Source: Synechococcus sp.
Lineage (GTDB): Bacteria > Cyanobacteriota > Cyanobacteriia > PCC-6307 > Cyanobiaceae
Length of the DNA stretch: 64,000 bases
Direction of reading: 5' to 3'
Assembly (NCBI GenBank): GCA_047285805.1
Contig: JBJBCN010000002.1
Span: 1,328,347-1,392,346, forward strand
The translations under genes were made by a program, and so were the position numbers. A model generated the notes under the pieces. It did not search any database and was not told where the DNA came from. It saw only the letters and a program-made list of their open reading frames with translations. Below are positions 2,072-64,000 of this stretch, in pieces (positions within the stretch are counted from its first letter, which is position 1; every line of letters begins with the position of its first letter).

Positions 2072-2124
2072 CCGGTTTTCGAGCTTCTGACGTAATCGCC
2101 AGATCGGTTGCGGCGGAATGATTG

Positions 2125-2162
2125 AAGGGGCCTTCCAGCCCCAGCGGATCATTTGGTTGATA
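2125..2162 (-). repeat. att core: copy of the tmRNA 3' end (E1/E2 junction)
   Basis: 36/38 identical to 21006-21043. Confidence 0.9.
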
Positions 2163-2266
2163 AGACTGAGTGCCCCCAAAGCGGCACAGTTCTTTTCAGG
2201 CAGATGTCTTTCTAAGCCTGAGTTTACGAAAGCCACCCACAGCAAACGAAAGCTTGCGGGAGCTAT

Positions 2267-2290
2267 TTTATCCGGAGAATTATCCGGGGA
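2267..2290 (+). repeat. Tandem 12-bp repeat TTTATCCGGAGA/ATTATCCGGGGA, left arm site of E2
   Basis: Same motif as 11585-11608; ends 1 nt before the integrase ATG. Confidence 0.75.
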
Positions 2291-2291
2291 G

Positions 2292-3530
2292 ATGGCCGCC
2301 GAAGCTTGGGAAAAGGGTTTCCGCGCTGCGATAAAAACCGGGAGACAGGGGTGGGGAGTAAGCAACGACAAGAGCACAGGCCGAGTGCGCCTAAAACTCC
2401 AGTTCCCAAAGGCGGGGGACTGGCCAAGCAATAGCTCGGTCAACCTGCCTTACGCCTGGACGCCAGCGTCGATCAACCCGGTGATCCAACTCGTCAATGC
2501 GGCCTATGGACCTGTCATGGAAGGTCAGGTCCCGCTCAAGGCGGCGATTGAGAACCTGCTAGCCATAAGCGATCAAAAAGCTGATCTGGTGCGTACAGCC
2601 TGGCCAGGCATTGCGAGATCCTTCCGCACCAAAAAGCTAAGCACAGGAAATCGAATAGCCGATAGCACTTACAGCGCTTCCTATGGGCGCTACATAGAAG
2701 TGGCCTTGCAACACCTGCAGGGTCCCAAGTCTGCTCAAACAGGAAAAGCGCTGATCGAGCGTGTACTAATCCATCAACGAACCAACAAGAAGCCCGGCAA
2801 GCGTTTCGGAGAGCAGCTCACCCCCTGGATCGATCAGCCGAAATCCCGCATGCAGTGCTGCCTAGCGCTGAAACTGTTCCTTGAGTTTGCGGTTGCCGAG
2901 CATCGACAAGCGCAGTCCTTTCTGATCATCGAAAAGGACTACCTCCAGCTTCGTGGTGGTGATGGAAGGACAAGAAAGAAGGCAGTCCTTACAGATGCGC
3001 AGATATGCGAGCTCATCAGACTGCTCCCAGAGCACTGGAGCAACGTAGTGAAGGTGTGCCGATTGTTTGGCGTAAGGCCATGGGAGATCAACTTCATCGA
3101 ACGACGCATCAACCCGGGGGGCGAACAACAGCTATTCGTCAGGAAGGGCAAAGAAGTCACCAGCCGAAGCGGTGTCAAAGAAGAAACTGAGCCCCGCTGG
3201 TTAGAAGCGGTGGCCATTGATGGAACGACATTTGGACTTGTCGAGAAGTGGGAGAGCTTGAAGCTTCCCGCAAGAGTCAGCGGGGCGAACCTAGGCGCCA
3301 GGTTGCGAAGGCTCCAGTACTGGAATTGTCTCGTTGAGGAATTCAAGGCCAACGGAGAATGGCTGCGTCCGTACTCGTTCCGAGACACCTTCAGCGTGCG
3401 TGCGCACGACCTGAACATCAGCAGCACAAACATCGCTCAAGCAATGGGCCACAGCGTTGAGGTCCATCACCGAAGCTATAGGACTTCGGAGTGGAAGGGC
3501 GTCAGAAAAGCCTTCCTCCGAGCTAGCTAA
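2292..3530 (+). CDS. Tyrosine integrase of E2
   Basis: FGVRPWEI, RPYSFRD (YxxR variant), AMGHS...Y; homologous to 11860-13149; start moved to ATG 2292 because the longer ORF crosses the att site. Confidence 0.88.
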   Translation: MAAEAWEKGFRAAIKTGRQGWGVSNDKSTGRVRLKLQFPKAGDWPSNSSVNLPYAWTPASINPVIQLVNAAYGPVMEGQVPLKAAIENLLAISDQKADLVRTAWPGIARSFRTKKLSTGNRIADSTYSASYGRYIEVALQHLQGPKSAQTGKALIERVLIHQRTNKKPGKRFGEQLTPWIDQPKSRMQCCLALKLFLEFAVAEHRQAQSFLIIEKDYLQLRGGDGRTRKKAVLTDAQICELIRLLPEHWSNVVKVCRLFGVRPWEINFIERRINPGGEQQLFVRKGKEVTSRSGVKEETEPRWLEAVAIDGTTFGLVEKWESLKLPARVSGANLGARLRRLQYWNCLVEEFKANGEWLRPYSFRDTFSVRAHDLNISSTNIAQAMGHSVEVHHRSYRTSEWKGVRKAFLRAS

Positions 3531-4828
3531 TGGGACGCCCTGCAAAAAACGAAATCGGCAACACTTATGGCTTGCTGACAGTCGTTAGCGCCGGTCCCAA
3601 AAAGGGAAGTGCTACAGCTTGGATGTGTAGATGTGCTTGCGGAAATCAAGAGCTAATCCACTGCAGTGGGACGGAGCTAAGGGGAGGAGGTCGTAAAAGC
3701 TGTGGATGTATCAACCAGACACGACTGGAAGATCTGACTGGCCAGGTATTTGGACACCTAACGGTTGTGGAGCGGGGTCCCAACATTGGGCGAAGACCAG
3801 GCTGGTCTTGTCAATGCGATTGCGGCAGCCCAAAACTTGTTCTTCTTAGAGCAGACCAACTAAAGAAAGGAATCCCTGGAGACTGTGGCTGCTCGAAAAC
3901 ACCTTATACGAAAGGTATTTATGGTCCTTTTATCGATCGCCGGACGGCACTAAAGCAGGGGTTAACGCAGTACTTCCCTGGTTCTTTATGCGCTAAAGGG
4001 CACCTATCGCCAAGAATGACCTCTGGAGGATCATGCATGGTCTGCATACGCGAGCTGGCAGCAAAGAAACAGAAGGAGGGCTATTTCCGCGAATATGCAG
4101 CCAAGCGCAGAAAAACAGATCCCGACTGGAAGGCGAATAAAGCACGAGTAGCTCGAGAGTCATACCATCGTCATAAAGACGACGAGGGTGCCAAGGAAAA
4201 GAGAAGAGATTGGTACGAAAAGCACAAGACGACTGACTGGTACAAGGAGGCTTCAAAACGAGCCAAGGCCAAGTTCGTAGCTAGTGGGAAAAAAGCCCAG
4301 GCAGATCGGGCGTATAGCCAGAGCCAGGCAGGAACGGTTGCACGCATCAAAGCTCGCAGGGCGTGGCGAGAAAAGTTTGAGGCTGAGAAGGGCATGCCCA
4401 TCAGCAGCTGGAGGCTGAAGAACGACCCTCAGTTCAAATTGCATGTCCGTTTAAATCAACGCATCAGCGACGTCTTGAAGAGGCAGGGGGTCGTGAAAGC
4501 ATCAAAAACAGTTGACCTAATAGATGCTGAAATCGTCCACTTCAAGGCTTATCTCGCAGCCAACTGGGTCGAGGGCATGAGCTGGGAGAACTACGGTCGA
4601 GATGGTTGGCACGTTGATCACATACGACCTTGTGCAAGTTTTGACCTCACGGATGAGGACCAGCAACTCGTTTGCTTCAACTGGAGAAATCTAAGGCCCA
4701 TGTGGGCCACCGAGAACATCTCCAAGAGCGATAACTATGACCCTGCAGATGAAGTCGAATGGGCTGAGATGATGGTTGAGCTTGGCTTTGAGGGTGAGCT
4801 TTTTCTCCTCTATACGACCAACGAATGA
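3530..4828 (+). CDS. Multidomain HNH endonuclease
   Basis: Two N-terminal Cys-rich repeats (G.LTV...W.C.C.CG...CGC), a CxxGH...CxxC motif, C-terminal WHVDHIRP...NLRPMWATENISK; TAATG overlap with the integrase. Confidence 0.8.
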   Translation: MGRPAKNEIGNTYGLLTVVSAGPKKGSATAWMCRCACGNQELIHCSGTELRGGGRKSCGCINQTRLEDLTGQVFGHLTVVERGPNIGRRPGWSCQCDCGSPKLVLLRADQLKKGIPGDCGCSKTPYTKGIYGPFIDRRTALKQGLTQYFPGSLCAKGHLSPRMTSGGSCMVCIRELAAKKQKEGYFREYAAKRRKTDPDWKANKARVARESYHRHKDDEGAKEKRRDWYEKHKTTDWYKEASKRAKAKFVASGKKAQADRAYSQSQAGTVARIKARRAWREKFEAEKGMPISSWRLKNDPQFKLHVRLNQRISDVLKRQGVVKASKTVDLIDAEIVHFKAYLAANWVEGMSWENYGRDGWHVDHIRPCASFDLTDEDQQLVCFNWRNLRPMWATENISKSDNYDPADEVEWAEMMVELGFEGELFLLYTTNE

Positions 4829-5034
4829 AGAGATCTGGCACCTGATCTCTTCTCAGTTTTCACCAGGCTTTAGCATGGTTAACGGGGAAGGGGGAATCTC
4901 TACCAACTGCGGATCTTTGCCCTAGCGTTAACTCACTTTTTAACCTGACGCTAGACGAACCGTGCGCCTCCGGATGACCCACATAGATTGACCCAACAAG
5001 GACCCGACTAAACAGATTCAGTATTATGACTGAA

Positions 5035-5493
5035 TCATTCTTCGATAAACCTTGTTGTAGGCATGCCCTTGACAGAGGCAACTGTAACCCAGACGATCGT
5101 CGGCTCTTTACCGACATTTTCTACATAATGGGGCTCGTTGGCACCTTCAACAAATGCCTCACCGGGCTTGAAAACAGTTTTAACTTCAGTCCCGTCAGGC
5201 TGAACCCGAGTGTTGAGTAATGAACCAGATCTGACACCTTGCACGTAAACCATCATTGGAGCAGGGTGAGTATGCAGGGGAATCTTTCCTCCAGCAGGAA
5301 TTTCAACTCGATAGAGGCGCAGCTCTGGTTTGCCTGAGGGGTACTTAAGAGCAGTTCCGTTCAGTGTTTCTGAACTACTAAGGATCTCCTGAATCGCAGG
5401 TTTCGTTGAAGTTGACGACGTTTCACCTTTTTGATTAGGACTACATGCAGCCAATGCCAGGGCGACGGTTCCGAACGCGAGAAGGCGCTTCAT
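5035..5493 (-). CDS. Cupin-domain lipoprotein
   Basis: Lipobox LAAC; cupin motifs PLHTHP and GEAFVEG...HYVEN. Confidence 0.8.
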   Translation of the reverse strand: MKRLLAFGTVALALAACSPNQKGETSSTSTKPAIQEILSSSETLNGTALKYPSGKPELRLYRVEIPAGGKIPLHTHPAPMMVYVQGVRSGSLLNTRVQPDGTEVKTVFKPGEAFVEGANEPHYVENVGKEPTIVWVTVASVKGMPTTRFIEE

Positions 5494-6164
5494 CCAAGTT
5501 GAGATGCTGGGTTGATTCTGCACCAACTAGTCGCAACAAGCTACGGAATAAGCCCGAGGGAGTGATGCTCCTCGGGCGGAACTGCACCGCTGCAGGAGCT
5601 TTCGCGGTTATGCGATCGCGTCCTGCATCGCAGCGAAGCTTTCAGGGTGTCTGACGGGGGAACGCTCATCCGAGCCTCTGAGCGGCCTCCCAGTACAGGC
5701 ACGCTGTCTTGACTATCGGAGGTCCGTCCTTGAAAGGCAATGCGCATAAAGCCTGATTGCCCTCTGTTCGAATCAGGCCGATGGTGGGTCCATCGATCTC
5801 GGAGGCGTTTTGGACGACACTCCACCTCAGAAGCATCAGTGAGCTAGCTGACTGCAGACCCCTGCTCCACAGCTCTTTCTCATCCACCACGGGCACGTCC
5901 TAAATCTCGGTTCTGCCGGGGGACACTCCATCCGCACCCAGTGAGGTGCCCTAAGGAGCAAGAAGGCCCGCCAACTGGAAGCACGGCCCCAGGCGTCGAG
6001 ATCAGAAGCTCCATCCATCTCTTTCGTCCATCAAGCAGTGGGTGCATCCCATGCATGAACGACCTAGGTAGGCCGTCTCTTCCACCGGGGAGGGGCGGCC
6101 TTCCTTAATGAGTCGTAATTGGCGTTGCGGAGCGTCGGTCAAAATAGGGTGTCGCTTCAGAACT

Positions 6165-6452
6165 ATGCGCAAGCTTCTGCTCGGGACATTCGCAGTCTTG
6201 GCGGCTGCCCTTCCACTTGCGGCGCAGGAACTTTCGAGCCCCGACGGGACCGCTCCTGATGCGCCAGCACCTGCTGTCGAGCCACCCTCCATCTGGCTCG
6301 TTTTGCGATACGGAGTAGGCGGTCCTGGAGCGCTAGAAAAAATAGAGATGCGAGACATGGCGCAATGTGAAATGCAAGGTGCCATTTGGGAGTCAAGTAA
6401 GCGCCTCAGTGAAGGTGGTTACACAGGTTTTGAGTGTATGGAAGGCAAATGA
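6165..6452 (+). CDS. Small secreted hypothetical protein (cassette gene A)
   Basis: Signal peptide; QCE.QGA.W..S.R and GFEC.EG motifs shared with 17726-18040. Confidence 0.75.
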   Translation: MRKLLLGTFAVLAAALPLAAQELSSPDGTAPDAPAPAVEPPSIWLVLRYGVGGPGALEKIEMRDMAQCEMQGAIWESSKRLSEGGYTGFECMEGK

Positions 6453-6976
6453 AAAGATTTAGAGCCGCATTATTGGTATCCGCGTCAATCTCATGTCTTG
6501 GCATGAATCCTGCTTTCGCCGACTTTGGAGATGCAGACTTTCCTGAAGCCCTGTTTAACGACGGTCCCCGCAGCTATCACGATGCTTGGTGCCGAAGGAT
6601 AAAGAACAAGTGTCGGGTGCGCTTCCAGGGAAAGGGAATGTGGGTCGAGGGGCAAGGCGGGATTCAGCGCTCGCAACTAAAAAGTTTCAGAACAGATTTT
6701 GACGGAAACGAGTTCTATAACTATGTGGACTACATATCGTCGGAAGGCCGCCTTAAAAGTGCGTTATTCATGTTTTCAAACTTTGAAGCCAACAGGGAGT
6801 TCCTTCGCGCAGTGGTGAGGTGGCAGCGAATGGATGCAAGCCCAGTGCCGAACTTTCGTTTTCCAGCAAGCCAGGGTCCACAGGACACGCATGGTCGAGA
6901 TAAGAGCTACGGCAGGAACAACAATCCTTATGCCAATCCGCCAATTACTGACTGGAAAGAAAAGACCACGCCCTAG
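6449..6976 (+). CDS. Secreted hypothetical protein (cassette gene B)
   Basis: Signal peptide ending AFA; ATGA overlap with gene A; close homolog of 17127-17651. Confidence 0.8.
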   Translation: MKRFRAALLVSASISCLGMNPAFADFGDADFPEALFNDGPRSYHDAWCRRIKNKCRVRFQGKGMWVEGQGGIQRSQLKSFRTDFDGNEFYNYVDYISSEGRLKSALFMFSNFEANREFLRAVVRWQRMDASPVPNFRFPASQGPQDTHGRDKSYGRNNNPYANPPITDWKEKTTP

Positions 6977-7024
6977 CGGTAGGCCTGGTTGGTCGTAATC
7001 AGCCTTGCGGTGTCACAGACTTGC

Positions 7025-7384
7025 TCACGCCATCAGCGAATGAATGATCTTAATCAGTTCTGCTTTGGTGAGCTTCTCTAAGGGCGGTGGTGGTGCTTGA
7101 ACATTATTTTCCTTTAACAACTTACATAGAGCTGACTTGTTCAGGCCAGAGAATCGCTTTAGTCCGTTCTCTTTACAGAGACTTCGCAGGGTCTTCACCG
7201 ACTGCTTTTCAAAGCTGCCTTTGCCGAGGAGCAAACTTAGTCTGTCTTCACCCTTAAGTCGGCCTGCGCCTGAATTGCCTTGATTCGCTTTTTGAAGTTC
7301 TTCGCTGATTTCGCGCAGGCTGCGTGCATCCGATTGCGCAACCTCTCTTAAGTTGGCCCTAAGGGCTTCAGAGATCTTTCCCAT
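7025..7384 (-). CDS. Hypothetical protein with Rho-N/HeH-like motif
   Basis: SVKTLRSLCKENGLKRFSGLNKSALCKLL; overlaps the upstream gene. Confidence 0.7.
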   Translation of the reverse strand: MGKISEALRANLREVAQSDARSLREISEELQKANQGNSGAGRLKGEDRLSLLLGKGSFEKQSVKTLRSLCKENGLKRFSGLNKSALCKLLKENNVQAPPPPLEKLTKAELIKIIHSLMA

Positions 7385-7877
7385 CAGACTCCTTCAATTT
7401 GGCTTGAATCGACTGTTGCTTCTCGATAAGTGTTTCTAGCTTCTCTTTTGATCTTGTCCAGCGTGTGATGAACTCGATTACAGCCTTCATCAGGTTCCCA
7501 AGGAAGTTGCCGCCCTGATAGGTACGACGACCACTTCTGTAAGCCTCGAATTGAGTCACCAGATCATCTCCGGCATCTTCTAGCTCTCCAATAACTCCGG
7601 TCACAATCTCAAGCATTTCATAAGCCTCTGCTCGTACAGATGCTTCACGCTCGGCTATCGATCTGAGTTTCCCCTCTAGCTCAGACATGGCCGCGCGACT
7701 GCGTTGTGCTTGCCCGCGAAATTGTCCTCGACTCACCATGAGCCCCCTGTAGGAGCTTCTTAAATCCAAATAAACGGATTCCAGAGCCTCACGCTCTAGC
7801 TGACTTACCTCGGCAGGAAATGCGCTAGTTGAAGGGAGCATGCTGGTCATGGGGGTTGGTTCGTCTTTTTGATTCAT
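7368..7877 (-). CDS. Coiled-coil hypothetical protein
   Basis: Helical heptad pattern; paralog of 8281-8745. Confidence 0.72.
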   Translation of the reverse strand: MNQKDEPTPMTSMLPSTSAFPAEVSQLEREALESVYLDLRSSYRGLMVSRGQFRGQAQRSRAAMSELEGKLRSIAEREASVRAEAYEMLEIVTGVIGELEDAGDDLVTQFEAYRSGRRTYQGGNFLGNLMKAVIEFITRWTRSKEKLETLIEKQQSIQAKLKESDGKDL

Positions 7878-7919
7878 GAGCTTCTAGAGAAGAATCACAA
7901 GGGGGAATGACTCATCACA

Positions 7920-8294
7920 TCAATTTGAGAATTGCCTTTGGGAATCGATCCAGTACGCCAGGAGTTGTTCGTAGCTGGGCGCTAGGGGTGCGTGGTTGTT
8001 TATCAGGAATGTGATTATGTCTGCCTTACGCTTCGGCTTACTTCTGTTCGGTAGGTTCATTCGGGTTGCTATCGCCCTCAGCTCGCCGACCTTTAGTTTC
8101 GAGAATTGATCTTCCTTGGCTGGAGGGAGTGCACGAAATGCCTCTGGTGCGAAGGCTTTTGCATCTACCTCCTCTCTTAAAGCGGCGAGAGCCTTGTTCT
8201 GGGAGTCAATATGAGATCCAATATCTCGTGCGAGTTGTTTATCAAGACTATTTATCTCCTCAATAGCTGCTATTAGGCCATCAGCTATCGACAT
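7920..8294 (-). CDS. Hypothetical protein with Rho-N/HeH-like motif
   Basis: LKVGELRAIATRMNLPNRSKPKRKADIITFL; same layout as 7025-7384. Confidence 0.68.
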   Translation of the reverse strand: MSIADGLIAAIEEINSLDKQLARDIGSHIDSQNKALAALREEVDAKAFAPEAFRALPPAKEDQFSKLKVGELRAIATRMNLPNRSKPKRKADIITFLINNHAPLAPSYEQLLAYWIDSQRQFSN

Positions 8295-8745
8295 TGCTTT
8301 CACCCCTCACTGCGGCGAGACGAGCTTTTTGCTCTTCTCTGGCCTCTCTGGCTTGCTGCATGGCCAAACGGAAGGTCTGAATGAAAGCCCGCACTGCTTC
8401 CACGAGTGCACTGCCTGAAAACAAGCCCCAAGCACCGTTGTTTTCAAAAGCGTCTTCCAATGCGACGCCGGCGCCCTCAAGTTCCTTGAGTACTTGGCCG
8501 TAGCCCAAGACAATCTTGTTTAACTCTGCTTTTTGACGGAGGGTGAGGTCCATCTTTTCCTGGAACTCCAGCAGCTCTGCTTGGAGCTGAGCGATATGGG
8601 CCTTTTGCCTCGTGACAGTTCCCTTGTACTGACCCCTCGCGCGATTCAGGTACTGAGCTTCGTCGAACAGACGGTTGTAGAGCTTCAGGACATCGGCCCC
8701 AGGGTGGATGGGGTACCGGTTCCGCGTGATTTGTACTGGAGTCAT
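8281..8745 (-). CDS. Coiled-coil hypothetical protein
   Basis: RGQYKG, ELEGAG..L...FE and LVEAVRAFI align with 7368-7877. Confidence 0.72.
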   Translation of the reverse strand: MTPVQITRNRYPIHPGADVLKLYNRLFDEAQYLNRARGQYKGTVTRQKAHIAQLQAELLEFQEKMDLTLRQKAELNKIVLGYGQVLKELEGAGVALEDAFENNGAWGLFSGSALVEAVRAFIQTFRLAMQQAREAREEQKARLAAVRGESNVDS

Positions 8746-8827
8746 CGCTGTTCAGCCTGGTCCTTATCCGAAGTTTCTAGCACACAAGGTGTCTACACCC
8801 CGTGCTCACCCGGGCTACACTTATTTC

Positions 8828-8986
8828 ATGCCCACGACCAAGCCCCGAGTCGGCTGGATCATTGATCCCACGCTGCTCGACAAGCTCAAGGAGCTTTCCG
8901 ATAAGAGCGGCCGTACCGTTCCCAAAGAGGCTGAACAGGCGATTAAGAACTGGCTTCAGCTCCACGGGAAGCTCCCCGTCGATTGA
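8828..8986 (+). CDS. Ribbon-helix-helix (CopG/Arc-like) regulator
   Basis: 52 aa: beta strand RVGWII, then helix-SGRT-helix; divergent from the four-gene operon. Confidence 0.65.
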   Translation: MPTTKPRVGWIIDPTLLDKLKELSDKSGRTVPKEAEQAIKNWLQLHGKLPVD

Positions 8987-9066
8987 AGCTCGGTCCTGGC
9001 CGCTGATCATTCGTAGGGCTGGTTACGTCAGTGGACTTGGCCCGTCTCTGTCAGTTCAGCGGCAAT

Positions 9067-9095
9067 AAAAAACCGCGGTGGCTTCTCCGCGGCTT
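9067..9095 (-). terminator. Intrinsic terminator
   Basis: CCGCGG-8nt-CCGCGG followed by T6 on the minus strand. Confidence 0.65.
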
Positions 9096-9213
9096 AGATC
9101 TCCCTACCCGGGACTCGTCCCAGATGTCGTCATGGTGCCGGCGGTGGGAGCCGCTTCAATAGGGACGCCTACTCATCTCTGGTAGAGGTATCGCAACCGG
9201 ATAGGCCATTCGA

Positions 9214-9312
9214 GAAGGTTTTGAAGGTTTTAAAGGTGCTGTCCGCACAGGCACGTGACTCAAGGCGAGTGATGCCCTTGGGGGAGGGGCCTTCAAAACC
9301 TTCAAAACCTTC
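9214..9312. repeat. Inverted iteron arrays (GAAGGTTTT), putative replication origin of E2
   Basis: gaaggtttt x2 + aaagg at 9214-9236; inverse ccttc + aaaaccttc x2 at 9290-9312; directly after the replicase stop. Confidence 0.7.
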
Positions 9313-9318
9313 AGTCAC

Positions 9319-10689
9319 TCAGCTACTCATTGCTTTGAGCACCTCCTCGACAGGGCGAAAGAGTGATGCGGGGGCACCTCCCCGCCTCCCGTTCGAGTCT
9401 CTGAACCCGTCCTCAACGATCAGATGTTTGCGCTCTAAAGCCAGGAGCGTCTCCCTGGCCTTTTGAGGAGCATTCACCTCAATCCCCAAGGCATTGCCTA
9501 AGTGAACCGCATCCATACCCCTCTTGGTGGAGAGGTAGTGATGACATAGGTCTTTGAGCGCCTTGTACTGACGATCTGTGAGGTCGTCGAGCACTCCCTG
9601 AATTGCAGCTTGCCTTGCAACCTCCTCGCCGGATCCATGAAGGATCCAGCCAGTGTTGGTTTGCTCTATCAAGAGGTCAATTGGAGCTGACTCGCGGCCC
9701 TCTGCCATCAGCTTGCTCCGCTTGTCTCGTTGAGCGAGCGGGTTGTCATCGCCGTCCCCAAGAGACGCGATAGCAAGGGTTTGGCTCACGGCTCCGGGCA
9801 GAGCGTTATTGCCTCGACTGGCCTCTGAGGCCCGCAATGCACCAGGCCGTTTTTTTGCGTGGTGGATCAACAGCAGCGTTGCCTCGTGGGGAGCAAGTGC
9901 TTCTGTCAGATCGATGCAGGGGTCAGCAAAGGAGGCATCGCACTCCTGCAGCCCAAGCCTGCTGGTGAGTGCGTGATAGCTGTCGAGCAAAACGATCAAC
10001 CCTGGGTAGCGGGTGCAGTAACCGGCAATTCGCTCGATGCCTTCCTCATCCATTGAAAGGGGCGCACCCTTATGGAAGAGGCTGACGATTGACGGGTGCA
10101 TGCTCCGGTCTGGGTAAAGCAGGCCGGCACGCTTGAGGCATATCGCCCAGTCCCGTTGAGGTTGGTCGCTGCCAACGATCAGGATTTTGGGGTCCGGCCA
10201 TGGATGCAGAGGCTGTCCCAAGAAGGACGTTTCACCACGGACCAGAGCGCCAAGGACGGCGCACATCAGCCGTGATTTGCCGACCTTTGGAGGGCCAACG
10301 AACAGGTTGCTCGTTGCCTTAAGCAGGACGTTCTCCCAGAGCCAAGGTGCTTCTTCGAAGGAAAGCTTTCCGCCTTGTGGGATGGGCTCAACGGCGCCCA
10401 TCAGCTTTCGCCGCTCTTGCCCAAGTAGGCGGCGCATTTCGTCGTCTCGGACGCGCGTCTGAAGTTCAGATGCGGTTCGGCGTAGGTGGATAAGCCGCTG
10501 ATGGCTGGGAATGGCCTCATCGCAAAGGAGATCCCGCGCCTTCCTCTGCAGGGTGCGTAGGTCCTCTGCTGCCGATGGCTTGCGTCGAGGGGTGGGGTCA
10601 ACGCGTTTGAGCTGACCCTGAACGCGTTGTTGCCGTTCCCTTTGATCAAACGCGTCTGAGTTGTCGAGATATGCAAGTGGATCGCTCAT
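9319..10689 (-). CDS. RepA/AAA_25-type ATPase, putative replicative helicase
   Basis: Walker A GPPKVGKS, Walker B IVLLDS, LLIHHAKK; GAGGAGG RBS and ATGA overlap support start 10689. Confidence 0.8.
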   Translation of the reverse strand: MSDPLAYLDNSDAFDQRERQQRVQGQLKRVDPTPRRKPSAAEDLRTLQRKARDLLCDEAIPSHQRLIHLRRTASELQTRVRDDEMRRLLGQERRKLMGAVEPIPQGGKLSFEEAPWLWENVLLKATSNLFVGPPKVGKSRLMCAVLGALVRGETSFLGQPLHPWPDPKILIVGSDQPQRDWAICLKRAGLLYPDRSMHPSIVSLFHKGAPLSMDEEGIERIAGYCTRYPGLIVLLDSYHALTSRLGLQECDASFADPCIDLTEALAPHEATLLLIHHAKKRPGALRASEASRGNNALPGAVSQTLAIASLGDGDDNPLAQRDKRSKLMAEGRESAPIDLLIEQTNTGWILHGSGEEVARQAAIQGVLDDLTDRQYKALKDLCHHYLSTKRGMDAVHLGNALGIEVNAPQKARETLLALERKHLIVEDGFRDSNGRRGGAPASLFRPVEEVLKAMSS

Positions 10690-10946
10690 CTCGACCTCCT
10701 CGCCCACCGGGCCATTCGGAGGCAGCCGATCGGGTCTTGGCGCTCCAGAAGCGTTGCTGCTCGGTCGTAATCCGCTGAAGACCAGGTTTGTTCGCTGGTG
10801 AGACGCAGCAGCTTGCCGGTCAGATCAACGGAGTCCAGAGGCCGCGAAAAATCTCCGTAATGCCGCCAGCGGTAGCGCTTAGCGACAATTAGGTTGTCGT
10901 TAGACATTTCTTCGCGACCCCCAGCGCCAACTGGGGGTTTTTTCAT
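10686..10946 (-). CDS. Hypothetical protein
   Basis: ATGA-coupled to both neighbours. Confidence 0.6.
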   Translation of the reverse strand: MKKPPVGAGGREEMSNDNLIVAKRYRWRHYGDFSRPLDSVDLTGKLLRLTSEQTWSSADYDRAATLLERQDPIGCLRMARWARRSR

Positions 10947-11206
10947 GCCCGAACCTGCACGAGGGGCTGGTGCAGACCGAAGGTTTCTACTGAAGAAGCA
11001 GGCATACGCCGAAAACCTGTAAAGGCGGCTTCAGTGGTGGCGATATTCCACTGGAGTGATCCTGCTGTTGTCATTCCAGACCATCGGTAGTGACTTCCCT
11101 CGACAAATGGGCTGCGCCCATCACGACGCAGCTTCAACAGCGTCTGCCTGTGAATACCAAGGTGGTCAGCCATTACGGCCGAACTCACCCAACTTTGAAT
11201 TTTCAT
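10943..11206 (-). CDS. Excisionase-like HTH DNA-binding protein
   Basis: MADHLGIHRQTLLKLRR...PFVEGSHY; homolog of 13529-13798. Confidence 0.72.
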   Translation of the reverse strand: MKIQSWVSSAVMADHLGIHRQTLLKLRRDGRSPFVEGSHYRWSGMTTAGSLQWNIATTEAAFTGFRRMPASSVETFGLHQPLVQVRA

Positions 11207-11214
11207 TGGGGGGG

Positions 11215-11433
11215 CTAGATAGACCCCTTCGCCCGTAGAGCAAGCTGAAATGCCGGAACGGTCAGGAATTTCCTGAGAAGAGGATGCTCCTCTAAGGGGG
11301 GGTACAACCTGGTAGTGCGCTCCAACAGCTCAAGCGTCTGCATAAACCTTGTTGGAGTCCAACCTTTCGGAATCCGAATGGTCTGACCTCCAACGTGCAC
11401 TGCATTGACGCGTTGCTTCTGCTTGCCCGCCAT
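11215..11433 (-). CDS. Hypothetical protein
   Basis: 72-aa ATG ORF heading the xis-rep operon. Confidence 0.45.
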   Translation of the reverse strand: MAGKQKQRVNAVHVGGQTIRIPKGWTPTRFMQTLELLERTTRLYPPLEEHPLLRKFLTVPAFQLALRAKGSI

Positions 11434-11584
11434 AGCGAAGGGGAATGAACAGATGCCTCGCGCCCAACGGACTCATATCGGTCCATCGTGTTGAGCCTGT
11501 GCGATTTAGGAACGCCGGTGCAGAGCAGCTGCGTTCAGCAGGCTCACGATAACGGCTGTTTTCGATCGTGAAGCCAAGAGATCC

Positions 11585-11608
11585 TTTATCCGGAGATTTA
11601 TCCGGAGA
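11585..11608 (+). repeat. Perfect tandem TTTATCCGGAGA x2, right arm site of E2
   Basis: Ends 51 nt before the att core; matches 2267-2290. Confidence 0.78.
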
Positions 11609-11659
11609 CAGACCGAACGCGATCGCAACGCGCGCCAGAACTATTGCCACACAATTAAA

Positions 11660-11697
11660 AAGGGGCCTTCCAGCCCCCATGGATCATTTGGTTGATA
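11660..11697 (-). repeat. att core: copy of the tmRNA 3' end (E2/E3 junction)
   Basis: 37/38 identical to 21006-21043. Confidence 0.9.
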
Positions 11698-11810
11698 GGC
11701 ATGATCCACAGGATTACGGAAGGAGTGGCCGCAAGCGATTTCGCCGTAAAGCCAGTCAGAGACTAATCCCAAAGACAGTCCTTGACAGTCGTAGGCGGTC
11801 AGACAAAACT

Positions 11811-11838
11811 AATTTGTCGGAAATTTGTCGGAAATTTG
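11811..11838 (+). repeat. Tandem 11-bp repeat AATTTGTCGGA x2 plus a partial copy, left arm site of E3
   Basis: Core TTTGTCGGAA also at 20928-20951. Confidence 0.75.
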
Positions 11839-11859
11839 CCCAGGCGGAACCTGTCCTCC

Positions 11860-13149
11860 ATGCCCCTGTGGGAGATGCGCCTGGTCTCCATTGCGGCCAA
11901 GTGGCCGGGATGGAGCATCACCAATGACAAGGGCTACGTCTGCGTTCGATACCGCGTAGCTGGGCAGCCAAGGCAACAAGTCAACCTGCCGAAGCTCCGG
12001 TACCGCGAAGAGGACGAAGTTGCGGCCATCACCATGGCCAGGCAGCTCTTCAAGGTTTGGGACAAGGCAGGAGGGGGGCTATCGCTGAAAGCAGCCTTAA
12101 TTGAGGTCAAGGGCTCCTGCGATTCAGAGGGGTCGGCACAGGTCGTCACCTGGGGGCAGATCGTTGAGGCCATGCGCGAGGCAAAGGTCGAGAACGGCCG
12201 CAAGATCCAGCCCCAAACCTGGAAGACCAACTGGGCGCCGATCCTCAACCAAGCAGTGAGAGTTCTCAGCAGGAAGAACGCGCCGGCTGATGGCTACGAG
12301 TTGCTCAAGGCCGTTCAGAAGCATTGGAGCCACGCCCCCGCCACTCAGCGCGAGTGCGCCCGATACCTCAGTCGCTGGATGGAATTTGCAGAGCGGCGAT
12401 ACAAGGTCCCGCGGAGCTGGTTGATAACCGAGGCCGACAGGCAGGAGCTGGCGCCCCGAGCGCCCAAGCGAAGGAAGAAGGCCGTCCTGGAAGACGTTGA
12501 GATCTTGGAGTTCGTCGAACTGGTCGAGGCCCACAGCCCAGCCTGGTCGAACGTCTTCCGCCTGTGCGCGCAATACGGGTTACGACCGACTGAACTGCAG
12601 TACCTGTCAATCGTTAAGGACCCGATCACAGGCCAGCGGACGTTCTGGTGTTCGTACGAAAAAGACGCCGGCGGTGAGGCAAGTACAGAGCCTCGGTACC
12701 TGCGGGCCATGTACTTGCGGGACGCTGACGACAGGCCGGTGCAGTGGCCACTGATCGATGCGTGGGAGGCAGGAACACTGGCTCTTCCTCAGGACAGGAA
12801 CGGCGGGCTACGCAAGCTGAGCGGTTCTGCTGTGAATACCTACCTGGCGCGCCAGGGCAAAGACGGCGGCCCTGCCAGTGCGGTTCAACGATGGTGGAAG
12901 GCCAAGGTCGCCGAGTACGCATCAAAGCCCCAGCCCGAGTGGCTGAGGGCTTATTCGTTTCGGGACAGCTACAGCGTCAGGTGCCATCGCGAGGGCCTTC
13001 CGCTGGATGTGATTGTCAATGCGATGGGCCATTCCCACCAGGTCCATCAGCAGAGCTACCGAACCGTCACGAACTCAATCGTGGCCCGGGCTTTCGAATC
13101 TTGTGCCACAGATTTGCGGCTCCCGTCTACACCAGATACGGAGGACTGA
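11860..13149 (+). CDS. Tyrosine integrase of E3
   Basis: YGLRPTEL, RAYSFRDSY, AMGHS...Y; RRKKAVL motif shared with the E2 integrase. Confidence 0.88.
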   Translation: MPLWEMRLVSIAAKWPGWSITNDKGYVCVRYRVAGQPRQQVNLPKLRYREEDEVAAITMARQLFKVWDKAGGGLSLKAALIEVKGSCDSEGSAQVVTWGQIVEAMREAKVENGRKIQPQTWKTNWAPILNQAVRVLSRKNAPADGYELLKAVQKHWSHAPATQRECARYLSRWMEFAERRYKVPRSWLITEADRQELAPRAPKRRKKAVLEDVEILEFVELVEAHSPAWSNVFRLCAQYGLRPTELQYLSIVKDPITGQRTFWCSYEKDAGGEASTEPRYLRAMYLRDADDRPVQWPLIDAWEAGTLALPQDRNGGLRKLSGSAVNTYLARQGKDGGPASAVQRWWKAKVAEYASKPQPEWLRAYSFRDSYSVRCHREGLPLDVIVNAMGHSHQVHQQSYRTVTNSIVARAFESCATDLRLPSTPDTED

Positions 13150-17126: not shown

Positions 17127-17651
17127 CTAAGGAGTGCTCTTCTCTTTCCAGTCCGTAATAGGCGGGTTGGCATAAGGATTGTTGTTCCTTCCATAGCTAT
17201 TATCCCGACCGTGAGTCTCCTGAGGCCCTTGACTCGCAGGAAGTCGATAGTTAGGTATGGGTTGAGCGACCTGCTTCTTCCAGCGGAAGAATGCTCTTAA
17301 GAATTCGTTTTGCGCGACTGGATTGGCAAACAGAAAAAGAGCCACCCTGGGCTCACCACTCGAGGAAACATATCGGAGATAATTATAATACTCGTTACCG
17401 TCTATATCGTACTTAAATCCTAGATACTGATTCGATTGAATGCCACCTTGACCTTCGACCCACATCCCCGGACCCTGAAAACGTATTCTGCATTGATTCT
17501 TGAGTTTTCGGCACCAGGCGTCGTGGTAACTCTTAGGCCCTTCATTAAAGGCACCCAAGGGAAAGTCTGCATCACCAAAATCAGCAAACGCTGCTCCGGG
17601 TAACGCAACGGCTGAGGCCAAGCAAAGCTTTGCAAGGAATCCCTTTATCAC
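17127..17651 (-). CDS. Secreted hypothetical protein (cassette gene B')
   Basis: AFADFGDADFP...YHDAWCR...NNNPYANPPITDWKEK shared with 6449-6976. Confidence 0.8.
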   Translation of the reverse strand: MIKGFLAKLCLASAVALPGAAFADFGDADFPLGAFNEGPKSYHDAWCRKLKNQCRIRFQGPGMWVEGQGGIQSNQYLGFKYDIDGNEYYNYLRYVSSSGEPRVALFLFANPVAQNEFLRAFFRWKKQVAQPIPNYRLPASQGPQETHGRDNSYGRNNNPYANPPITDWKEKSTP

Positions 17652-19935: not shown

Positions 19936-20907
19936 TCAGCCCAACCTCAGCGACGAACTATCCGCAGGATTAGCGGCGACGTAGCCACCAGTCGTCGATG
20001 CCGACGAATGGCCCAGCGTGCACTGCAGCGTGAACACGTCGCACCCCCTGCGAATGGCATGGGTCGCGTGGGTGTGGCGGCACCGGTGCGGATGAAGCCG
20101 GACCCCAGCCTCTTGGCCCCACTTCGCCATTCGACCGGCGACTGCCTGACGGGTCAGGGGGCCGTCCCGACGATCAGAAGGAAACAGCCATTCCTCCGCC
20201 TCGCCGCGGCCGAGCGACTCGAACAGCGCGAGTGTCTCCTTACTTGTACGAACGGTGCGGGCCTTTGATCCCTTCCCAAGCAAATGAATCTGGGCGCCGT
20301 CTTCCAGGGGCTCGATGTCCTGCCAGCGCAAACGGCACAACTCGGTGACGCGACAACCGATCAGGTAGCTGCCTTTGACCATGACGAAGTCGCGCGCGGC
20401 TGTCCCACGGCCCCGGTCGGCGGCCGCGGTCATCGCCTGGGCGATCGTGGCCAGCACCATGCCCAACTCGTCATCGGTCAAAGCCTTGGCGAGCTTGGGA
20501 GCGTGCAGGGTGGCTCGGCGGGGCATTGGGTTTCGGGGAACTCCCGTCACCGCAGAGCGGGTGGGCTCGGAGGCCCAGCGGTACATGGCACTGACGGCAC
20601 TGATGCGGCGGTTGAAACTGCGCGGCTTGAGTTCGTCTGCCGACACCATTTCCCGCAGCGAGGACACCCAGTCATCAACGAGGGCCGGGTCCAACTCCCG
20701 CAGGTGCAGGTGGGGGTGAAGCTCATCTCGCCAGCGAACGAAATGGCGCAGCTCTCGGGCGTAGCCGTTGATGGTCTCCTGGCTCCCGGTGCGGCTGCAC
20801 TGTTCGAGGAAACGCTTCAACAGAAGGTCGTCTCCCCACAGGGTGGCCCCTGCCGTGGCGGCGTCGAACAGACGCGAGACGTAGGCCAAAGCCTCCGCCT
20901 TATCCAT
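19936..20907 (-). CDS. Xer-like tyrosine recombinase, copy 2 (intact motifs)
   Basis: GCRVTEL, HPHRCRH, LGHSS, TTGGY; start set by identity to copy 1. Confidence 0.9.
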   Translation of the reverse strand: MDKAEALAYVSRLFDAATAGATLWGDDLLLKRFLEQCSRTGSQETINGYARELRHFVRWRDELHPHLHLRELDPALVDDWVSSLREMVSADELKPRSFNRRISAVSAMYRWASEPTRSAVTGVPRNPMPRRATLHAPKLAKALTDDELGMVLATIAQAMTAAADRGRGTAARDFVMVKGSYLIGCRVTELCRLRWQDIEPLEDGAQIHLLGKGSKARTVRTSKETLALFESLGRGEAEEWLFPSDRRDGPLTRQAVAGRMAKWGQEAGVRLHPHRCRHTHATHAIRRGCDVFTLQCTLGHSSASTTGGYVAANPADSSSLRLG

Positions 20908-20927
20908 GCCGCTTAAGACCGGCGGGA

Positions 20928-20951
20928 TTTTGTCGGAAGTTTTGTCGGAAA
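20928..20951 (+). repeat. Tandem 12-bp repeat TTTTGTCGGAAG/TTTTGTCGGAAA, right arm site of E3
   Basis: Ends 54 nt before the att core; core matches 11811-11838. Confidence 0.75.
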
Positions 20952-21005
20952 GCGATTTTCGAGGATCTGGCGTAATACCAAGATCCCCTGCACTGGAATG
21001 ATTTG

Positions 21006-21276
21006 AAGGGGCCTTCCAGCCCCCACGGATCATTTGGTTGATAAGGCTGATCTAACCCCATCTCCCTTAATTAGGGTCAGGCGGCCACAGGGGCGGTCTG
21101 ACGGGAGAAACGAACGATGTTGTTCGCTGTTACGGGTTCGCTCTAACCGAGCAGGCTTCAGTCACCCTCCTCATGCCCCGTCGAAACCATTGCAGCCCCT
21201 TGGAATGGAGCTGAGCGGAATCGAACCGCTGTCCGAAACACTGGTGTGAGCCACCTAGTCCGATCAAGACCGGACT
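21006..21276 (-). ncRNA. ssrA: Two-piece (circularly permuted) tmRNA; outer ends approximate
   Basis: Acceptor piece ...GGTTCGATTCCGCTCAGCTCCA ends at 21206, 6-nt spacer, coding piece starts GGGGCTG at 21199 (G3:U70 pair); tag ANNIVRFSRQTAPVAA* at 21127-21077. Confidence 0.95.
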
Positions 21277-59077: not shown

Positions 59078-61627
59078 ATGGCAGGATTTGGGGAGCAAAA
59101 AGAAAGGAAGAAGAAAAGAGCTCAGCAAAAGCCACAAATAAATGGTGCTAGCCTTCTGAAGAACGCAATACACAACCACCTCCAAGGCGATCTAAAGAAA
59201 GCCGAGACAAATTACAGAGCAGCCATTGATTCCGGCCTGATAAATGTCACATTGTTTTCAAATCTAGGTACTATTTGCCAAACAAGCCAGCGCATAGAAG
59301 AAGCAATCTCGCTTTATAGAAAGGCTATAGAAATAAACGCTGATCACCCAGATACTTACACTAATTTAGGAGGCTTGTACAAAGATCTCGGCGACCTTGA
59401 TCAGGCGCTTGATTCCACTCTCAAGTCCCTAGAGCTCAAGCCTGATAACCCCACTGCCCTCATCAACCTGGGCGGCATCTACCAAGACCTAGGCAAACTT
59501 GATCAGGCTCTTGCCTCAACTCTCAAGTCCCTAGAGCTCAAACCTGATAACCCCACTGCCCTCATGAACCTGGGCGGCATCTACAAAGACCTAGGCAACC
59601 TTGATCAAGCACTTGCCTACACACTCAAATCGTTAGAACTCAAACCTGATAACCCCACTGCCCTCACCAACCTGGGCGGCATCTACATAGATCTCGGCAA
59701 CCTTGATCAGGCTCTTGCCTCCACACTTAAATCCCTAGAACTCAAACCTGACAATCCCGATGCCCTCATGAACCTGGGTGACATCTATAAAGACCTCGGC
59801 AACCTTGATCAAGCACTTTCCTACACACTCAAATCCTTAGAACTCAAACCTGACAACCCCACTGCCCACATGAACCTGGGCGGCATCTATAAAGACCTCG
59901 GCAACCTTGATCAAGCCCTTGCCTCCACTCTCAAATCACTCGAGCTCAAACCTGATAACCCCACTGCCTACATGAACCTGAGCGGGATCTACATAGATCT
60001 CGGCAACCTTGATCAGGCACTTGCCTCCACTCTCAAGTCCCTAGAGCTCAAACCTAATACCCCTGGCGAGATTAATAATCTCAAAGCATTCATCGATGAA
60101 CTAAGTATAAGCCCATCCAACGCCAAGGATGTCACGCAAGCATATGTATTACTACTAAACCAGACGGACATACCACACAAAAAGCTAAGGCGAATATTCT
60201 TGCAAGTATTCTTGCCGACAATCCAAAGGGCATCTACATCAGATCCGATTATCTCTGAAGACAATGAGGCATTAGAAACACTAGCCGCCGACTGGAGATT
60301 TCACAAATCTCTTACCCTACTGACCTCTTCAAGCCCAGAAGTCGAGAAATTTTTCACTAGATTAAGGAAGGAGCTGCTAACACTCACAATTCAAAAGGGC
60401 ACAGTCCCAAAAAAACTAAGACCTTTAACAGAAGCCCTAGCAGCACAGTGTTTTCTAAATGAATACGTTTACTTCACATCACAAGAAGAAGATGTTGCTA
60501 TATCCCAGTTCGTTGAGGCAGCAGCCAATAGCCAGGAAGCTACCAATCGATATCTTACGATTATAGGCTGCTACAAAGCGATTTACACGACAGGAATAAG
60601 TCCGGTATTCATCGGCAATTACCCCACCCCTGATGACAACAGCAAAGAGCTGATTAAAGCTCAATTCAAAGAACCGCTCCTGGAGCAAGAGTTCAAGACT
60701 TCCTTCCAAGAAAAACAGAACATTACCGACGCAACCTCCCAAAGAGTTCAAGAGATGTATGAGGAGAGTCCATATCCCAGATTCAAGTTTTCTAACTACA
60801 CAAACAGCAAGCTAGCAAAGCCTGTTTATAAATCTATTGAGATTGAAACAACCAGAAAATGTCTATCTTTCTCGGAAGAATTAAAGTCCCCTACCGCCGC
60901 ACCAAGCGTCCTGATTGCTGGCTGCGGCACTGGCAATCAAGTAATCTCTGCCAGCCGTTATAAAAATGCTCAAATCACAGCGATTGATCTCAGCAGCAGC
61001 AGCCTGGCATATGCAATAAGAAAGTCAAATGAATATGACATGAATAACGTGTCTTTCAAAAAAATGGATCTGCTCAATATCTCTAAGCTCGAAGCCACAT
61101 TCGACATTATTGAATGTGGTGGTGTTCTCCACCACATGGAGCAACCAGCTGAGGGATTATCGGCACTCGTTCAACAACTTAAGCCTGGTGGATACATCAA
61201 GCTAGGTCTATATAGCGAAATTGCCCGCAAAATCATCGTGGAAGCACGCAAGACAATTCGAACTCTAAGGATCAACAGCTCTCCTGAGGGCATTCGAGAA
61301 TTTAGGAGGAAAGTCCTCCATGAAAAGATGAGAGAACTCGCACCTCTTCAGCAAAGAGGAGATTTTTGGTCGCTGTCGGAATGCCGAGACCTTTGTTTCC
61401 ATGTTCAAGAACATCGCTACACAACAGAAAAACTCCAAAAGCTACTGAATTCTCAGAATCTGACTTTCTGTGGATTCATGGTACCAAAACAGATAAAGAA
61501 ACTCTACCAAGAACGATACCCAGAAGATGGCGACATGACTTCATTGTCTAACTGGGGAAAATTCGAGGAAGAACATCCCTCAACTTTTAATGGCATGTAT
61601 CAATTCTGGGCGCATAAGCCGACCTGA
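59078..61627 (+). CDS. TPR-repeat protein with C-terminal class I SAM methyltransferase
   Basis: 34-aa TPR units, QCFLNEY, MYEESPYPR, LIAGCGTG, GVLHHM. Confidence 0.9.
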   Translation: MAGFGEQKERKKKRAQQKPQINGASLLKNAIHNHLQGDLKKAETNYRAAIDSGLINVTLFSNLGTICQTSQRIEEAISLYRKAIEINADHPDTYTNLGGLYKDLGDLDQALDSTLKSLELKPDNPTALINLGGIYQDLGKLDQALASTLKSLELKPDNPTALMNLGGIYKDLGNLDQALAYTLKSLELKPDNPTALTNLGGIYIDLGNLDQALASTLKSLELKPDNPDALMNLGDIYKDLGNLDQALSYTLKSLELKPDNPTAHMNLGGIYKDLGNLDQALASTLKSLELKPDNPTAYMNLSGIYIDLGNLDQALASTLKSLELKPNTPGEINNLKAFIDELSISPSNAKDVTQAYVLLLNQTDIPHKKLRRIFLQVFLPTIQRASTSDPIISEDNEALETLAADWRFHKSLTLLTSSSPEVEKFFTRLRKELLTLTIQKGTVPKKLRPLTEALAAQCFLNEYVYFTSQEEDVAISQFVEAAANSQEATNRYLTIIGCYKAIYTTGISPVFIGNYPTPDDNSKELIKAQFKEPLLEQEFKTSFQEKQNITDATSQRVQEMYEESPYPRFKFSNYTNSKLAKPVYKSIEIETTRKCLSFSEELKSPTAAPSVLIAGCGTGNQVISASRYKNAQITAIDLSSSSLAYAIRKSNEYDMNNVSFKKMDLLNISKLEATFDIIECGGVLHHMEQPAEGLSALVQQLKPGGYIKLGLYSEIARKIIVEARKTIRTLRINSSPEGIREFRRKVLHEKMRELAPLQQRGDFWSLSECRDLCFHVQEHRYTTEKLQKLLNSQNLTFCGFMVPKQIKKLYQERYPEDGDMTSLSNWGKFEEEHPSTFNGMYQFWAHKPT
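59348..60061 (+). repeat. Seven near-identical 102-bp TPR-coding repeats
   Basis: Unit ~PTALMNLGGIYKDLGNLDQALASTLKSLELKPDN. Confidence 0.92.
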
Positions 61628-63785: not shown

Positions 63786-64000
63786 CTATAGCTCATCAAG
63801 CTGTACCTCAGCCGCAGGAACCTCCGCACCCTCAGGAGTTGACGCCCCTTCACTCTCAATGACTTCCACTTCATTGACCTCTACCTCACCCGCAGGAACC
63901 TCCGCACCCTCAGGAGTTGACGCCCCTTCACTCTCAATGACTTCCACTTCATTGACCTCTACCTCACCCGCAGGAACCTCCGCACCCTCAGAAGTTGACG
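63786..64000 (-). CDS. C-terminus of an acidic repeat protein (5' part outside the window)
   Basis: Open frame ending TAG at 63786, with 26-aa repeats ASTPEGAEVPAGEVEVNEVEVIESEG. Confidence 0.6.
   Translation of the reverse strand, partial: STSEGAEVPAGEVEVNEVEVIESEGASTPEGAEVPAGEVEVNEVEVIESEGASTPEGAEVPAAEVQLDEL
63804..64000. repeat. 78-bp tandem repeat (at least 2.5 copies)
   Basis: ccgcaggaacc at 63812, 63890 and 63968. Confidence 0.92.

Follow-up and report, generated by a model that had tools for sequence, protein, structure and literature searches.

The conserved unit at this locus is a two-gene module, in which a coiled-coil (CC) gene is followed by a gene for a Rho_N/SAP-type helix-extension-helix (HeH) protein, and not a four-gene operon. 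From its gene context across cyanobacterial genomes, the module is most likely an enzyme-free leader that regulates defence operons, a reading that leads those weighed below and is put forward tentatively. The window, as the whole stretch of 64,000 nucleotides from Synechococcus sp. is called here, carries two such pairs side by side, together with a divergent ribbon-helix-helix (RHH) gene:

8281..8745, minus strand: CC1, coiled-coil protein of the rarer subfamily, 154 aa
7920..8294, minus strand: HeH1, N-terminal helix plus Rho_N/SAP-type helix-extension-helix, cognate partner of CC1
7368..7850, minus strand: CC2, coiled-coil protein of the common subfamily, alternative ATG at 7877
7025..7384, minus strand: HeH2, cognate partner of CC2, 119 aa, pI 9.9
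8828..8986, plus strand: RHH, ribbon-helix-helix protein divergent from CC1, 52 aa
8788..8799, no strand: GGTGT-N2-ACACC palindrome in the CC1-RHH spacer, candidate RHH operator

All five open reading frames of the initial annotation are present in the order given there, with the claimed frame overlaps within each pair (14 nt for CC1/HeH1 and 17 nt for CC2/HeH2), and the motifs that it quoted for CC1/CC2 and HeH1/HeH2 can be read in the translations. Regarding the start sites, HeH1 begins at 8294, the same ATG as in its homologues, and the homologues of CC2 begin near 7850, not at 7877, the other possible ATG. A spacer of 42 nt separates the CC1-HeH1 pair from the CC2-HeH2 pair. On the 3' side of HeH2 no gene lies behind it in the window, the next gene being convergent, and a promoter search at the locus gave no sigma-70-type match. 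Close by, the same unannotated gene with a signal-peptide-like start is present at 6434-6976 and at 17127-17651, in both tandem elements and in opposite orientation.

Across 80 CC2-type loci from GTDB, with flanks of up to 10 kb, the HeH gene comes next in 79, and CC1-HeH1 lies upstream in none. Similarly, the HeH gene is directly behind in 30/30 of the best CC2-type loci from 301 family genomes, among which the four-gene order is found only at the window's own locus (0/29 of the others), and each of the seven CC1-type loci carries CC1-HeH1 as its only pair. L160 retains most of CC with HeH absent, and CC is broken in L037, L066 and L179, where the adjacent HeH is matched over its full length. 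In trees built from 39 CC and 32 HeH proteins, the latter leaving out six distant partners, CC1 and CC2 occupy distinct clades (support 97/94 and 96/99). The other members of these clades come from modules that stand alone in their genomes, and HeH1 and HeH2 cluster with the HeH proteins that these modules encode. This separation suggests that the pairs diverged long ago, and the simplest reading of the trees is that two pairs were brought together at the window locus; L097 is a second locus with two different pairs, within 4 kb. An in-place duplication giving a conserved four-gene heteromer, as first proposed, is not supported, the order being absent from 80, 29 and 7 other loci and the trees setting the pairs apart. 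The two-gene unit (79/80 and 30/30) and the agreement of the cognate trees, in turn, favour a leader role.

The five-gene block is found at high identity in metagenomes of four studies, and in X13 one contig covers 7863 to 9015 and diverges beyond. Among the 40 best-supported variant sites listed from four metagenomes, 19 fall in the four ORFs, 15 of them synonymous. In RNA runs X16-X18, CC1, CC2, HeH2 and the spacer are covered by short contigs, which are not counted as expression because they give neither strand nor level.

The RHH protein matches a PHROG of Arc-like repressors (E 4e-4). Its gene occurs in 5 of 301 genomes, adjoining CC1 in four of the five, and is absent from four other CC1-type loci. 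The GGTGT-N2-ACACC palindrome, with two copies in the whole genome, is also present in L032 and partially in L034, and is absent from the four CC1-type loci that lack RHH. The link first proposed for RHH is thus seen with CC1 only, with which gene and palindrome travel; the RHH protein would likely add a control of CC1 through the spacer palindrome.

Regarding the paralogy of the pairs that was initially suggested, CC1 and CC2 are 25% identical over their alignment and related beyond chance (BLASTP 36% over 67 aa, E 5e-7; profile-profile P 98%, E 1e-13). HeH1 and HeH2 are weakly alike (BLASTP E 5.6; profile-profile P 59%, E 9e-5) and are bridged by a third HeH subfamily, of which L051, for example, matches them with E 2e-5 and 6e-23. 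At E<=0.01, Pfam recognises Rho_N in 18 of 33 HeH family members and SAP in 9 of 33, and the family profile matches the Ku70 SAP domain (E 2e-8); the assignment as a Rho_N/SAP-like domain is thus confirmed at the family level, the window proteins themselves being under the Pfam cut-offs. SAP and Rho_N domains bind nucleic acids, usually without sequence specificity.

The predicted structure of CC2 has a helix at residues 20-110, a glycine turn and a second helix at 115-154 (pLDDT 80, pTM 0.44), which starts amphipathic, with a hydrophobic moment of 0.62-0.67 near residues 116-135. No transmembrane segment is found, the best 19-residue hydropathy values being 1.14 and 0.74. HeH2 is modelled with a helix at 2-35, a linker, the helix-extension-helix at 63-92 and a C-terminal helix at 107-118 (pLDDT 71), and SAP and Rho N-terminal domains are among its top fold neighbours, at non-significant E values of 1-4. 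The coiled-coil protein is unnamed in Pfam, NCBIfam, PHROGs, PADLOC, PDB sequence and Foldseek searches, which return generic coiled coils at most, and it matches no known toxin domain or fold in the Pfam, domain and fold searches. None of the five window proteins fits a PADLOC model at E<=1, nor any of four homologues at E<=1e-10. The initial view that the four proteins carry no enzymatic motif and belong to no named system agrees with these searches, as Pfam, NCBIfam, PADLOC and PHROGs gave neither an enzymatic motif in the four nor a family that names a system for any window protein.

Both pairs reside in an element integrated at the tmRNA gene, whose tag, like the named relatives, indicates a picocyanobacterium:

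2125..11706, no strand: host element of 9.6 kb, with tmRNA attachment-sequence copies at both ends
2125-2162 and 11660-11706: attachment-sequence copies, with a third copy at 21006-21052 in the tmRNA
2118..3530, plus strand: inward-facing integrase-like gene, 28% identical to the integrase at 11782-13149
9319..11433, minus strand: replication/excision module with an AAA_25 helicase (9319-10707), an excisionase-like HTH gene (10943-11206) and two small ORFs

This arrangement fits a tycheposon-like element with the CC/HeH genes as cargo. The tmRNA site, the inward integrase, the replication module at the far end and the cargo in between are shared with tycheposons (10.1101/2020.12.28.424599), the likeness being one of vehicle layout only, as the available passages of that source do not describe CC/HeH cargo. 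Pfam finds no terminase or capsid among the main ORFs of the element, and PHROGs, run on nine ORFs, gives only weak terS matches, with the excisionase-like HTH (E 0.005) and with HeH2 (E 0.057). As no packaging gene was found, the element is considered a cargo element, and the label of satellite originally given to it is not supported. Xer-type recombinase genes at 1062-2169 and 19936-21050 are 90% identical in DNA and each adjoins a tmRNA attachment copy, a pairing that indicates nested or tandem elements at the tmRNA. Directly behind the integrase, a 432-aa cysteine-rich protein (3530-4828) matches nothing in Pfam or PADLOC and contains what we take, by eye, to be an HNH-like motif. A copy of the helicase, 84% identical, occurs elsewhere in the genome (G000:C2:549773-551155) without CC-HeH genes, and tandem repeats, whose periods are about 102 and 78 nt, lie at 59328-60063 and 63793-64000 of the window.

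The module is present in 87 of 300 sampled genomes of the family, and close relatives of CC1 in 7 of 300, three of them broken; its distribution is patchy, and some genomes carry several divergent copies. A profile search of 1.84 billion proteins returned 190 representatives, and the nearest clusters in the ESM Atlas are cyanobacterial and unnamed. Among 401 genomes of the phylum, 20 match the first profile and 40 the widened one, the latter figure being an overcount due to false weak matches, such as a 1110-aa protein of G064 that is an unrelated coiled coil. Distant cyanobacterial copies keep the order of a CC gene followed by a small helical partner, which shows weak homology to HeH2 (P 23%), and have housekeeping genes of various kinds as neighbours; by eye, none is followed by a defence operon. 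One of the distant copies is located on the conjugative plasmid A of Trichormus variabilis ATCC 29413 (AVA_RS27490/27495). At L208:2016-2465 and L217:2022-2474, also in distant cyanobacteria and by eye, a further CC-like gene, shorter than CC itself, lies ahead of the CC-partner pair. CC2 was not found in plasmids, and no viral relative appeared in IMG/VR with four queries or in phage records.

The most useful result concerns the genes around the module, although these counts come from related rather than independent loci, with genes missed by the caller in GC-rich DNA. Of 105 distinct HeH genes, 37 are followed on the same strand by a gene of at least 130 aa that starts within -20 to +100 nt and is thus counted as tightly coupled, many of them with a 4-nt overlap. 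In the upstream direction, an equally close same-strand gene end is found for only 8 of 110 CC genes, with no overlaps; this polarity favours a leader. When CC2 of the window itself is excluded, 36 coupled downstream genes remain, and 22 of these match PADLOC, which bears out the suspected link to defence: GmrSD/HEC-05-like (8), type I methyltransferase (6), DrmD (5), DEDDh PDC-S48 (2) and PDC-S03 (1). The remaining 14 comprise seven HD-domain genes, one CC fusion and six without assignment. Upstream, three of the eight close genes match PADLOC (one nuclease and two protease domains). PDC-M21A comes first downstream of the module in 10 of the 80 loci. At L105:10832-11476 and at six similar loci, the HeH stop codon is overlapped or immediately followed by an HD_4-domain gene, a candidate for a role in defence or signalling. 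A further unannotated pair, encoding a coiled-coil-rich and a small basic protein with no Pfam or PADLOC match, lies divergently on the upstream side in 13-14 of the 80 loci (e.g., L131:2348-3190 and L144:8316-8852).

Regarding the third subfamily, ten loci chosen from 22, not blindly, and extended to 19 kb all run into defence operons, nine of them directly; these are type I (7), type III (1), IIG-like (1) and DISARM (1) operons. The fourth subfamily lies upstream of type I R-M operons in G009 and G047. Together with the PADLOC matches, these operons argue for the leader reading, as does a palindrome, ATGCA-N5-TGCAT, which precedes 33 of 109 CC genes, in almost every case at -82 to -93 or -62 (e.g., in L016, L024, L142 and L052), against a background of 92 in 6283 tiles (1.5%) and 18 of 498 other ORFs. 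This palindrome, which may resemble the LysR NtcB site, is absent from the window and from 19/19 marine CC2-type and 6/6 CC1-type upstream regions.

As a leader, the CC and HeH proteins would likely form a DNA-binding complex controlling the promoter of the module itself and whatever defence operon is coupled to it downstream. The HeH protein would pair with the coiled coil through its N-terminal helix, while its basic HeH domain would contact DNA and hold the complex there, and the coiled coil would set the oligomer state or sense the signal that releases repression. As nothing lies behind HeH2 in the window, the two stacked pairs would act on their own genes or in trans.

Such a role has precedents in CapH/CapP (10.1101/2022.04.27.489752) and CapK/CapS (PMC13373217), which the available passages of both sources describe as two-gene modules upstream of diverse immune operons (including DISARM for CapH/CapP), with one partner binding DNA. 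That position is shared by the CC/HeH family but not by the window locus, and the likeness is positional only. CapH/CapP joins an HTH repressor to a metallopeptidase and CapK/CapS a STAS repressor to a kinase, both activated by ssDNA according to the same passages, whereas the CC/HeH module joins an HeH protein to a plain coiled coil and has no enzyme; Pfam, NCBIfam, PDB and fold searches find in it neither HTH and metallopeptidase nor STAS and kinase domains. RptR, as far as its source describes it in the passages available (PMC12255303), likewise stands first in type I R-M defence islands and encodes a small, enzyme-free protein made of helices only; it is a single 79-aa gene that binds TAGCTA repeats, with no cyanobacteria reported in those passages, and its structure (9R2Z) is absent among the profile and fold matches of CC/HeH. 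It is the 5'-head position before unrelated defence operons, common to CapH/CapP, CapK/CapS and RptR, that makes a regulatory leader the most likely reading. The 35-residue helix-extension-helix itself is shared with the Ku70 SAP domain and the Rho N-terminus, where it forms an accessory part of a larger machine, and with the defence proteins Rst_3HP Hp2 and TOXO, the latter of 365 aa (PMC13092281); in the HeH proteins, it is the sole recognisable domain, always paired with a coiled-coil gene. MtvS1/S2 (PMC13627669), RHON1 (PMC12642595) and the HEH insert of the BREX ATPase (PMC12839542) were set aside as unrelated on the passages available. No description of the CC/HeH module was found in the literature covered, outside which lie subscription papers and bioRxiv supplements, such as the tycheposon gene tables that may list this cargo. 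Within this scope, the module is an undescribed defence-linked family, outside every named system compared.

Several observations weaken the leader reading. No tightly coupled gene follows 68 of the 105 modules, HeH2 included, and the distant homologues sit, by eye, among housekeeping genes with no defence operon behind. The ATGCA-N5-TGCAT palindrome, missing from the window, could belong to a host regulator, SAP and Rho_N binding is usually not sequence-specific, and the module has no sensor or enzyme domain. The relatedness of the loci, the non-blind choice of ten and the missed gene calls weigh in the same direction. Besides, the head position could arise if defence cassettes insert behind an autonomous, promoter-supplying module.

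This last possibility is part of the closest alternative, where each pair is a stand-alone toxin-antitoxin (TA) or abortive-infection system, which is possible, if on balance unlikely. The freed CC hairpin, through its amphipathic helix, would damage the membrane or stall growth, the HeH partner would restrain it and sense phage or damaged nucleic acid, and defence operons would accumulate behind the module's promoter. The modules share with type II TA systems two small coupled genes, mobility and a patchy distribution, with several divergent copies in some genomes, and TA or R-M genes occur within 3 kb in at least 22 of the 80 loci (104 of 177 neighbour clusters scanned). The frequency of lone modules (68/105) and the broken state of CC in L037, L066 and L179, where HeH is still matched over its full length, are in line with it, and it best explains why a mobile element keeps two versions, stacked and conserved as cargo, with nothing behind. 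The hydrophobic moment near residues 116-135 also speaks for a membrane-active helix, but amphipathy is expected of any helical hairpin, and there is neither a transmembrane segment nor a fold match to a known toxin. In addition, L160 has most of CC and no HeH, and the strong 5' polarity that supports the leader is not predicted by a TA system alone.

A structural role is improbable, with the pair organising DNA as a tether, compaction or partition aid that recruits DNA-acting machines (Druantia, restriction complexes) at the protein level or helps to keep the element. It best explains the fusion of the CC domain to the N-terminus of proteins of 856-1118 aa (P0201, P0210 and L083:10939-13509), of which P0201 matches DruF (E 3e-11), the DruF2 models covering residues 202-400. 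Neither P0210 nor the G080 fusion contains the segment that matches DruF, and both can be aligned to P0201 only in the CC and C-terminal parts; in G080, the fusion comes after a CC-HeH pair, in an island that also holds DruE and a type I R-M operon. These proteins are possibly a variant Druantia, the likeness to type II DruF being limited to P0201; the window proteins match no Dru model. A separate search for longer fused CC forms gave no match, which is weak evidence; the fusions came from other searches. P0198 and P0200 were set aside as apparent chimeric gene calls. The presence of the module on the conjugative Trichormus plasmid and among chromosomal housekeeping genes would also suit an organiser. 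On the other hand, a single docking surface would not suit downstream partners of such diversity, the patchy distribution is unlike that of a core function, and partition finds no link to the module in the form of a centromere-like repeat array or a ParA/actin-like ATPase (a ParA-like neighbour appears in 1 of 104 scanned neighbour clusters).

Rather doubtful, too, is a bolder version, in which a cyanobacteria-specific, enzyme-free CC/HeH assembly would tether DNA to the membrane through the amphipathic hairpin, in the manner of LEM/SAP proteins, as a shared platform gating or recruiting restriction, DISARM and Druantia systems, with mobile elements stacking several specificities, as in the window. 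It is very unlikely that the four genes are a duplicated operon encoding a single obligate four-protein heteromer. In favour of it, contigs from X4, X5 and X13 bridge the 42-nt spacer, X13 shows block ends near 6994 and 9015, and L097 also carries two different pairs; against it, each subfamily stays intact without the other at loci lacking that order.

With the leader as the preferred reading, the four-gene arrangement is a local stacking and matters less than the two-gene module, which is found in more than a quarter of the sampled family genomes, at the head of very different defence operons. The module also marks defence loci, and the coupled genes behind it are candidate new defence genes, including the seven HD-domain genes and the six without assignment among the 36. 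If the pairs were instead stand-alone toxins, they would represent a new fold combination. In the literature covered, no regulator was found for the costly restriction and DISARM operons of picocyanobacteria, and the module may offer a direct handle on how these are switched on.
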